Assembly: GCA_038231435.1 (NCBI GenBank) | Contig: JBBRLJ010000047.1 | Span: 1 to 39,052 of the forward strand | Direction of reading: 5' to 3' | From: Planctomycetota bacterium | Lineage (GTDB): Bacteria; Planctomycetota; UBA11346 | DNA: 39,052 nt | In this document: positions 6,657 to 11,256 of the stretch, piece after piece | Layout: every line of letters begins with the position of its first letter | Numbering within the stretch: the first letter of the stretch is position 1 | Notes under the pieces: model-generated | Seen by the model: the letters and a program-made list of their open reading frames with translations, nothing else | Databases searched by the model: none | Told to the model about the DNA's origin: nothing | Made by a program: the position numbers and the translations under genes

Positions 6657-6670
6657 GATGGGAGAATTGA

Positions 6671-6775
6671 GAAGACCGAAGACCGAAGACCAAAGCGGAG
6701 AAGCCTCAAGCCTCTCCGCTTCTAGCTTCTAGCTTCTAGCTTCGATCTTCCGTCTTCCCGTCTTCCCGTCTTCCC
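6671..6775. repeat. Inverted compound microsatellite: (GAAGACC)x3 - hairpin - (GCTTCTA)x3 - (GTCTTCCC)x3
   Basis: Units at 6671-6691, 6718-6738 and 6752-6775. Central stem AAGCGGAGA (6693-6701) pairs with TCTCCGCTT (6713-6721). The outer GAAGAC and GTCTTC cores are complementary. Confidence 0.9.
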
Positions 6776-6813
6776 CCTTCCCTCCCCCCCTCCCTCCTCA
6801 TCCTGTCCCGCCG

Positions 6814-9552
6814 ATGGCCAAGGCTCCCTCACCGCTCGATACGCCGATGATGCGGCAGTACCTCGAGGTGAAGGCCGAGCGGCCCGATTGCCTGCTGATG
6901 ATGCGCATGGGCGACTTCTTCGAGGCCTTCCTCGACGACGCCGTCGAACTGTCGCGCATCACCGGCGTCGCGCTCACCAGCCGCAACAAGGATTCCGACC
7001 ATCCGATCGCGATGGCGGGCGTGCCGCACTTCAGCTTCCCCGGGCATCTGCCCAAGCTGCTCGCCGCCGGCAAGCGCGTGGCGATCATGGATCAGCTCGA
7101 GGATCCGAAGGAGGCGGCCAAGGATGGGCGCAGCCTGGTGCGGCGCGGGCTGACGCGGGTGATCACCGCGGGCACGCTCATCGACGAGGTTGACGCCGGC
7201 GGCGGCGCCAACCACCTGGTCGCGATCACCGCCAGCGAGGGCGTGATCGGCATCGCCGCGCTCGACGTCTCCACCGGCCGCTTCACCGTCGAGGAAGCGG
7301 GCTCGCCCCCGCAGCTGGCGTTGGCACTGTCGCGCCTGCAGCCATCGGAGGTGGTGGTTCCCGAGGAGCTGCGCGATAGCCCCGAGGCGATGGCCCGCCT
7401 CGCGAACGCCTTCGCCTCGATCGGCGCCAGCGCGCCGATATCCGGCCTGGCGGCGTACGCGTGGAAGGGCGGCGACGCGCGTCGCTTCCTCTGCGAGCGT
7501 CTGAAAGTCGGCTCGCTCGACGGTTTCGGCATCGGCGGCGGCGAGGATCACCTGGCGGCCGCCGCGGCGGCCGCCATGCGCTACGCCGAAGGTGCGCTGC
7601 GCATCGGCGGCGACGGCTCGCTGCGCCTGCACGAGACCATGGACGGCGGCGGCACCGGCGCGCTCGCGCACGTGCGTGCGCTCACCCGCCTGCACCACGC
7701 CGAGCACCTGGTGATCGACGCCAGCTGCCGGCGCAATCTCGACCTGCTGCGCAACAGCCGCGACGGCGGCCGCGACGGCACACTGCTCGGCGCCGTCGAC
7801 CGCACCAAGACCGCGCCGGGCGGACGCCTGCTCGCCGAGTGGCTGTCGCGCCCGCTCGCCCAGGCGGCGGGCATCGGCGCACGCCACGACGCCGTCTCGC
7901 TGCTGGTCGCGGGCGACAGCCTGCGCGCCGATCTGCGCGACCTGCTCGCCGAGGTCTACGATCTTGAGCGCCTGCTGGCGCGCATCGCCACCGCGCGCGG
8001 TAACGCCCGCGACCTGGTGCAGCTCAGGCGCTCGCTCGCCGCCGCCGAACGCGTGCGCGGGAGCATGCGTGGCCAGCCGCTGCCGGCGCTGCTCGCCGAG
8101 GCCGCCGAAGCCCTGGTCCCCGACGCCGCGCTCGCGGTCGAGATTGCGCGCCTGCTGGTCGACGACCCGCCGATCGCGATCGGCGAGGGCGGCATGGTCA
8201 GGGACGGCGCCGACGCCGAGCTCGACGGCCTGCGGGCGATCCGCACCGACGCGGGCGAATGGTTGGCGTCGTACCAGCGCCGCGAGGCCGAGGCCTGCGG
8301 GTTGGCCAAGCTGAAAGTCGGCTACAACAAGGTCTTCGGCTACTACATCGAGATCTCGAAGGCCAATGGCGAGAAGGTGCCGCCGCACTTCGTGCGCAAG
8401 CAGACGCTGGTGGGCGCCGAGCGCTACATCACCCCCGAGCTCAAGGAGTACGAAGACAAGGCGCTCGGCGCCGAGGACCGCATCCGCGCGCGCGAGCTGG
8501 CGCTATTCGGAGCGTTGCGTGACCGCGCCGCCGACGCGGTGGGCGCGCTGCAGCGCTGCGCCACCGCGCTCGCGGTGATCGACGTGGTCGCGGGCCTGGC
8601 CGAGGCCGCGCGCAAGGGCGACTGGTGCCGGCCGGTGGTGGACGACAGCCAGGAGCTGGTGCTCGAGGAATGCCGCCATCCGGTGGTCGAGCAGGTGGTC
8701 GGCCGTGGCTTGTTCGTCGCCAACGATACCGCGCTGCGCGCGGCCTCGAGCGAGCCCCAAGTCCCGCGCCTGGCGGTCATCACCGGGCCCAACATGGCGG
8801 GTAAATCCACCTACATCCGCCAGGTGGCCCTCGCGGTGATCCTCGCCCAGGCGGGCAGCTTCGTGCCAGCGCGCGCCGCGCGCGTCGGCCTGGTTGACCG
8901 CGTCTTCACCCGCGTCGGCGCCGGCGACGAGCTCGCGCGCAACCTCAGCACCTTCATGGTCGAGATGGCCGAGACCGCGGCGATCCTCAACCACGCCACG
9001 CGCCGCAGCTTGGTGGTGCTCGACGAGGTCGGGCGCGGCACCTCGACCTTCGACGGCGTCTCCTTGGCGTGGGCCATCACCGAGCATCTGCACGACCGCA
9101 TCGGCTGCCGCTCGCTGTTCGCGACCCACTACCATGAGCTCGTCGACCTCGCCGCCGACCGTCCCGGCATCGCCAACTTGACTGTCGCCGTCGCCGAGCA
9201 GGACGAGGACGTGGTGTTCCTGCACCGCATCGTCCCCGGCGCCGCGACCAAGAGCTACGGCATCCATGTCGCGCGACTGGCGGGCGTCCCCGCCACGGTG
9301 GTCGCGCGCGCGCGCGAAGTCCTGGCCACGCTCGAACAGCTCAACGTCAGCCTCACCGAGCGCGAACGCCCCGCCGTGCGCACCGACGCCGCCGCCAACG
9401 GCCGGCCCGCGGCGATGCAGTTGACCCTCTTCCAGGCCAACGAGAGCGCGACCCTGCAGCGGCTGAAGGCGCTGGATCTGGATGGTGTCGCGCCGCGGGA
9501 TGCGTTGGCATTGCTGTATGAATTGAAGAAGGCGGCGCAGACGGAGGCCTGA
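6814..9552 (+). CDS. mutS: DNA mismatch repair protein MutS
   Basis: TPMMRQY, MGDFFE (FxE mismatch motif), KVGYNKVFGYYIE, Walker A GPNMAGKST, STFMVEM, DEVGRGT, ATHYHEL, SYGIHVA. Confidence 0.98.
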   Translation: MAKAPSPLDTPMMRQYLEVKAERPDCLLMMRMGDFFEAFLDDAVELSRITGVALTSRNKDSDHPIAMAGVPHFSFPGHLPKLLAAGKRVAIMDQLEDPKEAAKDGRSLVRRGLTRVITAGTLIDEVDAGGGANHLVAITASEGVIGIAALDVSTGRFTVEEAGSPPQLALALSRLQPSEVVVPEELRDSPEAMARLANAFASIGASAPISGLAAYAWKGGDARRFLCERLKVGSLDGFGIGGGEDHLAAAAAAAMRYAEGALRIGGDGSLRLHETMDGGGTGALAHVRALTRLHHAEHLVIDASCRRNLDLLRNSRDGGRDGTLLGAVDRTKTAPGGRLLAEWLSRPLAQAAGIGARHDAVSLLVAGDSLRADLRDLLAEVYDLERLLARIATARGNARDLVQLRRSLAAAERVRGSMRGQPLPALLAEAAEALVPDAALAVEIARLLVDDPPIAIGEGGMVRDGADAELDGLRAIRTDAGEWLASYQRREAEACGLAKLKVGYNKVFGYYIEISKANGEKVPPHFVRKQTLVGAERYITPELKEYEDKALGAEDRIRARELALFGALRDRAADAVGALQRCATALAVIDVVAGLAEAARKGDWCRPVVDDSQELVLEECRHPVVEQVVGRGLFVANDTALRAASSEPQVPRLAVITGPNMAGKSTYIRQVALAVILAQAGSFVPARAARVGLVDRVFTRVGAGDELARNLSTFMVEMAETAAILNHATRRSLVVLDEVGRGTSTFDGVSLAWAITEHLHDRIGCRSLFATHYHELVDLAADRPGIANLTVAVAEQDEDVVFLHRIVPGAATKSYGIHVARLAGVPATVVARAREVLATLEQLNVSLTERERPAVRTDAAANGRPAAMQLTLFQANESATLQRLKALDLDGVAPRDALALLYELKKAAQTEA

Positions 9553-9625
9553 GGGCGGTCGGAATGTTCGGTGTTCGGTCTTCTCTTTCTTCGGGTCTTC
9601 GAGGCTTCTCGCGTCTGGCCTACAC

Positions 9626-9866
9626 GCCTCGTGCTTCTTCGTGTTTGTTCGTTCGGAAGATGACGACGTTGAAGAGGCCGTGACGCTTGGAGGCCCCGAG
9701 GCTGAGAGGCCGACAGCAGAAGACAGGTAGGCACGGTCGTGGTCGGTTTCTCCTGGTAGCGCAATCGTCGCGGACGTGCTCGCAGTCAAGGACGGCGGGC
9801 GGGGCGCCCGCTCGCGGCGGAGCGCCGTTGCCGGGGCGGCCATCCTTGACAGCTGCGCGCGTCCGC
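9626..9866 (+). repeat. Left arm of a long imperfect inverted repeat flanking the four-helix-bundle gene
   Basis: Outer block GCCTCGTGCTTCTTCGTGT...TGACGACG, five GA(G/C)GC-core units at 8-bp period (9674-9710), and an inner palindrome GCGGACG..GTCAAGG..CCTTGAC..CGTCCGC (9770-9866). Confidence 0.85.
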
Positions 9867-9893
9867 GGGCAGAGGCGCAAGGAGAAATCTCAC

Positions 9894-10244
9894 ATGAGGA
9901 CATTCGAGGATCTCGCGATGTAGCAGGTTGCGGCGGAGCTGGTGGAACAGCTATCAAGGGAGCGACAAATACGGCGCTCTGGCGATGGCATTGGGCATCA
10001 GATCCGCGAGGCGGCGGTGTCGATCGCCTCGAATATAGCCGAAGGGCGGGGGCGCGTCGGCGACGCGGAGTTCCACCGCTTCCTCGCCATCGCGCGTGGA
10101 TCGTGCACCGAAGTACAGGCGCAACTGCGACTGGCATTCCGCTGTGGCAACCTCGAACGCGAACGCTTCGAGTCGATGCTCCACCTCGCGCAACGTGTGA
10201 CCTGGATGCTCACCGCCCTGATGAGGCGGCTCGCGCCGCCGTGA
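9894..10244 (+). pseudogene. Four-helix-bundle protein (23S rRNA IVS protein / Avd-like family) with one in-frame TAG
   Basis: AAGGAG RBS, then MRTFEDLAM*QVAAELV...QIREAAVSIASNIAEGRGR...EFHRFLAIARGSCTEVQAQL. The TAG at 9921-9923 sits at the conserved Trp of the family motif FxDLxVWQ; the rest of the frame is intact. Confidence 0.92.
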
Positions 10245-10280
10245 GCGCACCCCTAGTGTGCTCTCCTTCGCCCCCACCCA

Positions 10281-10516
10281 GCGAACGAGCGCAGCGGTCA
10301 AGGTTGGCCGCTTCGGACACCGCGGTTCCTCCGCGGCGGACGGCGCCCCGCCGGCCGACCTTGACGGCGAGCACGTCCGCTACGATCGGCGAATCTCGGA
10401 GAGCATCCCACTTCCGCTCTCTGTCCGAGCTTCTTGCTTCGTGCTTCCAGCTTCCCGCTTCTTCGTCGTCACTACGGATCGGACCGAGACTGAATACTCG
10501 TAGAGGCACTCGAGGC
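10281..10516 (-). repeat. Right arm of the long imperfect inverted repeat
   Basis: The reverse complement reads GCCTCGAGTGCCTCTACGAGT...TGACGACG, then five GAAGC-core units at 7-bp period (10429-10461), then ATCGTAGCGGACGTGCTCGCCGTCAAGG...CCTTGAC, collinear with the left arm. Confidence 0.85.
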
Positions 10517-10578
10517 TCAGAAGCTCAGAAGCTCAGAAGCTCAGAAGCTCAGAAGCTCAGAAGCTCAGAAGCTCAGAA
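10515..10578. repeat. Perfect octamer tandem repeat (GCTCAGAA)x8
   Basis: Read directly; it begins at the outer edge of the right inverted arm. Confidence 0.97.
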
Positions 10579-10599
10579 GAACTTCTCCCCTCCCCCGCA

Positions 10600-11256
10600 C
10601 TACCTGTATTTCCCCACCAACCTCGTCGCCCTCTCCTCCAACCTCTCCAGCTCCTCCGATAATCCCTTCGCCCGCTTCTCCAACTCCGCCGCCGTCGGCT
10701 CCGCCTCCGGATACACGATCGGTTCGCCGTACACCACCGCGAGATGCGCGCGCGGCAGCGGCACGCGGAAGCGGTCCCAGCTCTTCTTCAGGGTCAGCTC
10801 GCGCGTCGCGCGCACCGCGATCGGCACCAAGGGGATGCGGTTGCGTCGGGCCATCTCGAGCGGACCGGTCTTGGCGCGCTTGAAGGGGCCACGGGGGCCA
10901 TCGACGGCGATCGCGAGCTGGTAGCCGTCGCGCAGCGCCTCCATCAATTCCTTGGCCGCGTGCACGCCGCCACGCGCGCTCGAACCGCGCACCGGGCGCA
11001 CGCCGACACGGCGCATGTAATCGGCGATGATCTGGCCGTCGCCGGACAGGCTCGCGAGCGCCGCGACCTTGAAGCCCTGGTGCGGCGCGAGCACGGAGAG
11101 CAGGCTCTGGTGCCAGAGGCAGAACACCGCGGTGCCGGTGGGGCTCAGGCGCGCAGCGCGCATGACATTCGCGGAGCCGTAGAGGTGGAAGCGCAGCGAG
11201 GCGACGAGATTGCTGGCGAGCAGATGGACGAGTTCCGGTGGCGGCCGATAGCCCAT
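10600..11256 (-). CDS. DUF374 / lysophospholipid acyltransferase-family protein
   Basis: FCLWH, ASLSGDG, VRGSSARGG, AVDGPRGP and SWDRFRVPLP are characteristic of DUF374 proteins. Confidence 0.9.
   Translation of the reverse strand: MGYRPPPELVHLLASNLVASLRFHLYGSANVMRAARLSPTGTAVFCLWHQSLLSVLAPHQGFKVAALASLSGDGQIIADYMRRVGVRPVRGSSARGGVHAAKELMEALRDGYQLAIAVDGPRGPFKRAKTGPLEMARRNRIPLVPIAVRATRELTLKKSWDRFRVPLPRAHLAVVYGEPIVYPEAEPTAAELEKRAKGLSEELERLEERATRLVGKYR

Follow-up and report, generated by a model that had tools for sequence, protein, structure and literature searches.

What occupies the 1047 nucleotides between two convergent host genes, mutS and a gene for a DUF374 protein, in a Planctomycetota bacterium? 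In the window, by which we mean the whole stretch of 39,052 nucleotides that was analysed (contig JBBRLJ010000047.1), this gap holds a gene of the TIGR02436/PF05635 four-helix-bundle family enclosed by two inverted arms. A preliminary description, made from the letters alone, took it for a one-gene mobile cassette or an RNA/protein module. The locus is real: it is likely a decayed copy of an undescribed cassette that would be built on a known kind of promoter. Neither the cassette nor its promoter family was found described in the literature. The promoter-like anatomy of the arms, the pseudogene state of the gene and the recoding of the host flanks were missed by the preliminary description.

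The locus and its place in a gene family

The two host genes, mutS (6814–9552, plus strand) and the DUF374 gene (10600–11256, minus strand), converge on the locus, as confirmed by Pfam. The enclosed gene (9894–10244, plus strand, 116 codons) belongs to the four-helix-bundle family as first thought, with scores of 90.1 bits against a cut-off of 24 and 85.7 against 33.8 (TIGR02436/PF05635), and its nearest solved structure is 2GSC (E 4.5e-14, five chains). Codon 10 (9921–9923) is an in-frame TAG, where 15 of 15 paralogs have W. The letters of this TAG are identical in contigs of runs X1 and X3, which belong to one study and of which X1 may be the source of the window. Judged by its sequence, the gene is likely a pseudogene.

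Each arm is divided into an outer zone and a leader. The left outer zone (9553–9730) is a degenerate inverted short-repeat hairpin that includes an outer block (9626–9678) and period-8 GAGGC units (9674–9710; four exact and one GACGC), and it is followed by the left leader (9745–9893, plus strand). On the other side, the right leader (10258–10410, minus strand) adjoins an outer zone (10411–10599), also an inverted short-repeat hairpin, with five period-7 GAAGC units, an outer block (10455–10516) and (GCTCAGAA)x8 at 10515–10579, the last of these being among the further simple repeats that had been noted outside the arms. Period-7/8 arrays number about 100 genome-wide, and gene-less patches of 7-mer repeats are seen in the window at 590–720, after the tmRNA, and at 6657–6800, before mutS.

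The likeness of the two inverted, diverged arms held up well. The whole-arm local score is 145 against a shuffled mean of 27 (0 of 1000 shuffles), the inner part scores 141 (0 of 1000), and an inverted repeat of 45 nt at 91% joins 9764–9808 to 10342–10386. The palindromes bounded by GTCAAGG and CCTTGAC are present at 9785–9850 and 10297–10365, with 66–69 nt between motifs and about 150 nt when the outer stem is included. The outer blocks, whose limits were chosen after the fact, are alike beyond chance with a score of 31 against a shuffle maximum of 27 (0 of 1000 shuffles). This score is reached by only 2 of 5000 random windows and by none of 99 other repeat neighbourhoods, and the match is therefore locus-specific. 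Two elements of the proposed common layout fell away: the likeness of the repeat units from arm to arm is weak, its score being reached by 31 of 1000 shuffles, and TGACGACG, taken for a shared module, is hardly commoner beside repeats than expected (2 against 1.9). The common outer block, together with a partner-type stem in the left leader, suggests from sequence that one of the arms originated as a copy of its counterpart.

The genome contains 17 matches to TIGR02436, which are dispersed paralogs, and a leader of about 150 nt precedes all 16 of the genes with an assembled 5' end. Twelve genes form six convergent pairs (C13, C25, C34, C50, C28 and C62, of which C62 extends past the end of its contig), three are solo genes with one leader each (C17, C23, C30), and at C6 one gene is kept beside a stub of its partner. 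Gene-less leader remnants are found at C28:36.4k, C14 and C25:46.4k, and two more leaders lie at contig ends. That is, leader matches are gene-linked, deletion remnants or at contig ends, and the palindromes belong with the four-helix family instead of being generic REPs. The cassette is dispersed and apparently non-autonomous, and it lies outside the rRNA and DGR contexts, as had been proposed; Rfam searches of the window at gathering and E-value thresholds gave nothing relevant, only the tmRNA and a tRNA, and no rRNA.

These copies bear on the reading offered first, in which a one-gene element has the arms as its terminal inverted repeats or as an excised stem (IVS-like or a HUH-transposase substrate). 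As predicted, the global fold of 9626–10516 joins arm to arm (160–191 pairs), and arm–arm pairing wins at this locus; the outer blocks look like locus-specific inverted copies. Gene-less remnants with fused leaders (C14, C28) fit hairpin-driven deletion, and 25 of the 31 genomes encode Y1 transposases. Set against this, every leader in an intact pair comes with a gene and an SD of its own, a solo gene is accompanied by a single leader, and the arms are nearer to other copies than to each other: the left arm scores 160 with a leader on another contig and 141 with its own right arm, and the right arm scores higher with six other leaders than with the left arm. In addition, the presence of Y1 does not follow the cassette. 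The arms are 5' leaders, of which there is one to a gene, and the one-gene reading is quite improbable.

With arms closer to other leaders than to each other, the locus makes most sense as a pair that has decayed. The right leader is of the type found before the partner gene elsewhere, and the right arm aligns with partner-type leaders down to the SD, where the alignment ends. In the junction that follows (10245–10257), comparison with the intact pairs C13, C25 and C34 shows that the convergent partner gene is absent and that no start codon comes after the SD. The mutS–DUF374 locus is thus likely a copy of a convergent two-gene pair in which the left gene has acquired a stop and the right gene is missing.

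Promoter-like anatomy of the leader

The leaders share one order of parts: an anti-SD, a six-base bulge, 14 nt, GTCAA or GTAAA, a branched top, TTGAC, 14–16 nt, a G-rich run, the SD and ATG. In the left leader of the window these include the anti-SD (9747–9754), the complement of the -10 (9764–9769; GACGAT on the minus strand), the complement of the -35 (9784–9789; TTGACT), the branched hairpins (9792–9843), CCTTGAC (9844–9850) and the SD (9879–9884). The right leader holds the complement of the SD (10261–10268), GTCAAGG (10297–10303) and, on the plus strand, the -35 TTGACG (10361–10366) and the -10 TACGAT (10381–10386). On the template strand the hairpin immediately precedes the gene, and the arm opposite the template bears the -35 and -10 boxes. 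Along the template strand this far arm reads TTGAC/TTTAC-N-14-(T/G)ANNNT, and its -10 is unpaired.

The leader survey parsed 63 of 74 upstream regions, the 11 unparsed ones being dropped, and removal of four more rows and of duplicates left 58 distinct leaders. The letters of the -35 are partly imposed by the parse and the pattern scan; those of the -10 are not constrained by the parse. Here, A at -11 and T at -7 are each present in 61 of 63, and the middle letters are free. Position -12 is paired in all 58 leaders (32 G:C and 26 T:A), and -11 to -7 are never fully paired. The template arm is 15 nt long in 42 of the 58, 14 in 11 and 16 in 5, and 11 leaders have 14/14 on both arms. In 53 of the 58, the SD starts 10–14 nt past the partner of -12, and the predicted +1 of the window's left leader is the first A of its SD (9879).

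The stems are conserved as stems. Nine of 18 pairs are changed on both sides (0 of 500 shuffles), and a second test gives five columns (0 of 1000), where related leaders are non-independent samples and kin inflate covariation tests. The helix between anti-SD and SD covaries too, with a mean of 7.8 bp for a leader's own partners and 5.8 across genomes. GNA triloops are extra-stable in DNA, and they favour the template over the coding strand by 25 to 3, and by 65 to 5 and 43 to 0 in further sets. When folded as DNA, the left leader has z scores of -5.98 on the minus (template) strand, which folds as the predicted promoter, and -5.07 on the plus strand; for the right leader these are -6.00 on the plus (template) strand and -3.90 on the minus strand. 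Folding energy is uninformative as to strand, the coding strand being the more stable as RNA in 42 of 60 leaders and the DNA folds dividing evenly, 30 to 30. In global folds the arms pair with each other at the window's locus and, on both strands, in 4 of 10 intact pairs; several other pairs give mixed folds. Such arm–arm pairing would close the promoter bubble.

The spacer was compared with that of host promoter-like sites. With leaders masked, TT[GT]ACN..TANNNT sites number 8 at spacer 14, which is within the background of 5–12, and 29, 21, 19 and 17 at spacers 15, 16, 17 and 18. A few plausible host promoters do have a 14-nt spacer, and this length is short even for this host (15–18). Leaders and host sites use the same -10 words. 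The host sites peak at spacers 15–18, with 15–16 seen before tRNA-like genes; the norm in E. coli is about one base longer than the host's.

The reading that we favour, with reasonable though far from full confidence, is that the leader acts as a single-strand promoter with a second lock on the SD, and that a facing pair would make expression independent of which strand is exposed. In duplex DNA the boxes would point outward, set apart by a 14-nt spacer that is shorter than the host's range, and in read-through RNA the SD would be locked by the anti-SD; therefore, the gene should be silent in the duplex. Exposure of the template strand by transformation, conjugation or excision would let the hairpin fold. 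RNA polymerase would then start at about the SD, giving an mRNA that lacks the anti-SD, and with two genes facing each other either strand would allow one of them to be expressed.

Several of these observations could also be accommodated by a folded 5' RNA. Here, the leader would sit on read-through mRNA and hide the SD, it would be bound by the four-helix protein for autoregulation or as a cis signal for RNA-based copying, and the promoter-like letters would be protein contacts. The covarying anti-SD:SD helix and the better RNA fold of the coding strand are what such a leader predicts, a conserved U.G pair suits RNA on that strand, cassettes lie directly after host stop codons, and the family resembles Avd, which is RNA-binding according to the part of the source available (PMC10053308). 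This model is at odds with GNA loops that lie on the opposite strand, with invariant letters that agree with A-11/T-7 and TTGAC, and with the same core standing before unrelated leading-region genes. Furthermore, 3 of 6 cassette-rich genomes searched, all of them incomplete, gave no RT match. We consider the RNA leader unlikely.

Kin of the leader beside conjugation genes

The single-strand promoter reading has precedents in conjugation. Frpo promoters are single-stranded-DNA promoters of conjugative leading regions (PMC11541004, PMC9849209, in the text available of each). The F hairpin region before the ArdB gene is the ssp2/class 2 promoter according to the accessible parts of PMC13478746, PMC12672017 and bioRxiv 10.64898/2026.01.09.698686, and starts of this class were mapped by 5' RACE in pESBL (PMC12672017, same part). 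On the F sequence, the template strand of this hairpin has TTGCAT-15-TAAGAT in its far arm. The window's leaders are similar to Frpo1/2 (class 1) and to ssp2/class 2 before klcA/ardB and ardA, insofar as these are covered by the portions of the sources available (PMC9849209, PMC11541004, PMC12672017, PMC13478746, bioRxiv 10.64898/2026.01.09.698686): a long template-strand hairpin stands just before the gene, with -35 and -10 on the far arm and a short spacer, which is 14 in the window and 15 at the F ssp2 region. Unlike the F promoters, the window's leader has a branched, T-shaped top and lacks a sequence match; its profile showed no likeness to F plasmid 54.0–66.5 kb (E>=2). The cassette also differs from Frpo/ssp in being chromosomal and multicopy, in lying between core genes without an oriT, and in having a leader that precedes a four-helix-bundle gene, in facing pairs, with a promoter activity that is predicted. 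Proximity to relaxases is confined to kin in other phyla.

These kin came from a search with the core pattern over one genome per species, which gave at least 130 stretches; 128 were classified and 2 were without upstream DNA, some loci being duplicated. Among the 128 matches listed, 57 precede four-helix-type genes, 56 of them with a -10 at spacer 14. The others listed comprise 29 with a -10 at spacer 15, 8 at 13–14 and 34 with none. The 38 downstream ORFs tested encode DUF932 (11), RadC (7), ArdB/KlcA (3), ArdC (3), ParB (1) and other proteins (3), and 10 had no match. Like leading-region promoters, then, sequence kin of the leader precede DUF932, RadC, ArdB, ArdC and ParB genes next to relaxases. 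At gammaproteobacterial-type loci, a MobA/VirD2 relaxase lies downstream in 3 of 3 and a VirB/VirD4 set upstream in 2 of 3. One kin leader matches 268 plasmid records, 243 of which are typed conjugative, and stands just before radC in both of the two inspected. The core pattern has no match in viral contigs, and searches with the window's own leader gave chance matches only among plasmids and no real viral match.

Two groups of these kin are worth recording in their own right. Candidate hairpin promoters with spacer 15 before radC, DUF932, ArdB, ArdC and ParB beside MOBP-type relaxases (L101, L104, L110, L117, L118, L127, L128, L137, L156, L157 and L231-L236; NZ_CP012942.1 and NZ_CP026208.1) form a family that was not found described in the literature. 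The 34 listed hairpin-core copies of Alphaproteobacteria and Acidobacteria that have no -10 match or clear gene include L105, L120, L122, L133, L134, L138, L144, L146, L149, L153, L161, L165, L167, L173 and L176. GNA loops favour the same strand in these copies too (45 to 1), and some resemble back-to-back repeats.

The enclosed gene calls for comparison with other carriers of its family. ORF-bearing 23S rRNA intervening sequences (Coxiella S23p, in the part available of PMC4990558) have the same protein family, and the region can form a predicted closing stem. Unlike them, the window's gene is outside rRNA, has a promoter-like leader and SD for each gene, and is one of 17 dispersed paralogs. 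The DGR accessory protein Avd (PMC10053308, as above) shares the fold family and the 2GSC match, and the differences are that no RT was found in the genome and no template or variable repeat nearby. Four-helix genes in inverted 7-8-mer repeat arrays (L001, L004, L006, L007, L011, L017, L024, L028) agree with the window's gene in family, in arrays of short repeats, in patchy presence and in being inserted directly behind host stop codons. Their arms consist of repeats only, and the window's variant adds a non-repeat leader and the convergent pair. By likeness to Avd (PMC10053308, in the part available), the protein may bind single-stranded nucleic acid, and it would then help its own cassette to establish.

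Recoded host flanks and likely spread of the cassette

The host genes next to the leaders are altered at their ends. Among 2574 genes called by a simple rule, 17 end toward a leader, and at the fourfold sites of their last 15 codons C is 0.10 and G 0.75, compared with 0.44 and 0.40 elsewhere. The skew fades by 45–60 codons, leaves A and T unchanged, and places all 17 genes below the 5th percentile. In the last 30 codons of mutS, C3 is 2/30 as opposed to 14/30 in the empty-site ortholog, and in the DUF374 gene it is 1/30 as opposed to 18/30; that is, empty-site orthologs retain C. A weaker skew (0.24/0.65) was found in 15 genes of three genomes from two other genera, and 16 of 49 genes beside repeat-only patches are skewed. 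That the skew is a general trait of convergent gene ends was rejected, 584 ordinary ends being normal. GATACC is enriched in the flanks (6 of 17), which is probably a by-product of the skew. The end of the DUF374 gene (10600–10620) comes about 15–18 codons earlier than in two same-genus orthologs, and a family-level ortholog is also short; the gene was possibly trimmed at insertion.

Candidate explanations of the skew are a template strand poor in G that would let the hairpin fold freely, sites at which Rho loads onto outward RNA, and strand-specific mutation. The second of these belongs to another account of the leader, in which the boxes are an ordinary outward duplex promoter, antisense RNA runs through the repeats into the end of the host gene, and the recoded flank is where Rho loads to stop it. 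The boxes are indeed contiguous on one strand with host -10 words, the few plausible host promoters with 14-nt spacers can be counted in its favour, and along the outward strand the flanks of all 17 genes are rich in C and poor in G, in a genome where Rho is present. The account nevertheless leaves unexplained the covarying stems, the unpaired -10 and the position of the SD, which coincides with the +1 predicted for the folded form. Host sites with spacer 14 do not rise above background, and in 4 of 6 genomes the same skew also affects the opening 45 codons of the four-helix genes. An outward duplex promoter is, in our judgement, very doubtful.

Relatives show that the site can be empty. Of 29 DUF374 loci compared, mutS is convergent in this genome and three others, and an empty mutS–DUF374 site, sought since the preliminary description, is present in 2 of the 3 syntenic relatives. 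The gaps are 6 (same genus) and 20 (same family) in these, 358 in another member of the genus with an unrelated inverted element, and 1047 here. The 358-nt gap (L033, G001) contains GCGAAGC-type hairpins and TG-ATAAAAT/ATACAAT boxes, and the junction may be an insertion hotspot. No target duplication was seen at the empty sites, whose alleles are too diverged, and four runs of one study yielded no contig with an empty or inverted allele, contigs being known to drop rare variants.

Across 31 genomes the TIGR02436 copy number ranges from 0 to 53, and of 48 genomes from the family, 22 contain the leader pattern. In another genus, two four-helix genes lie between the facing leaders in all 10 of the pairs fetched, and copies fetched from five other genomes are mostly single genes. 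Paralogs form genome-specific clades (supports 96–100) in a quick, midpoint-rooted tree of 117 columns, used for this point only, and their dN/dS of 0.01–0.43 indicates purifying selection. The cassette is flanked by core chromosomal genes, follows directly on host stop codons and adjoins no oriT. RT (RVT_1) and GxxExxY gave no match in the genome itself, which is 87.6% complete and has one weak Y1 and a weak VirD4 fragment; ComEC is present. The suggested co-occurrence with RT or Y1 was not borne out: RT is found in 3 of 5 cassette-rich relatives, giving no signal, and a genome without a four-helix gene has 13 Y1 matches. Searches of these incomplete genomes, own and related, for RT, GxxExxY and Y1 found no mobiliser. 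A single Y1/RAYT-like transposase gene beside an integrase fragment (G000:C28:22.5-23.5 kb) is unlinked to leaders.

MITEs and REP-RAYT modules are multicopy, non-autonomous and palindromic, with filled and empty sites. The cassette resembles MITEs in being multicopy with filled and empty orthologous sites. It is unlike both in carrying a conserved protein under purifying selection, in having palindromes that are gene leaders, and in that neither a partner transposase nor a target duplication was detected in the searches made. As regards element-specific terminal repeats of the MITE type, its leaders are nearer to other copies than to each other, but its outer blocks are locus-specific. The enclosed gene is TIGR02436 where REP/RAYT has a Y1 transposase, and the leaders are gene-linked, remnants or at contig ends. 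The pair likely spreads as a non-autonomous cassette, for which the moving enzyme would be supplied in trans.

Put together, these observations would describe a new class of selfish chromosomal cassette that is awake only as ssDNA: a captured promoter of leading-region type, facing genes, an Avd-like protein that secures either incoming strand, and, in the host genes that the cassette travels with, some 150 bases marked by C-to-G change. We offer this combined picture tentatively, as one that may well fail in some of its parts. If true, genes of a host genome would sense their own single-stranded state. Single-stranded-DNA promoters have so far been described from conjugative leading regions, and here one would serve a chromosomal, multicopy gene family. 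The long-orphan TIGR02436 family would gain a testable condition of expression and a role, and through the shared sequence core it would be linked with anti-defence operons that neighbour relaxases. Sharp and cheap predictions follow from the recoding of the flanks and from the facing arrangement of the pairs.

Two related genomes show other arrangements. G026 (L014, L026) has 53 four-helix matches, many with stops, which share a promoter, imperfect terminal repeats and a T-run; the two copies read both adjoin transposase-like fragments, which we take to be IS982-like. At L060 (G001:C117), a convergent four-helix pair encloses a low-GC passenger gene of about 620 aa with leucine-rich-repeat-like stretches, a possible case of cargo capture.
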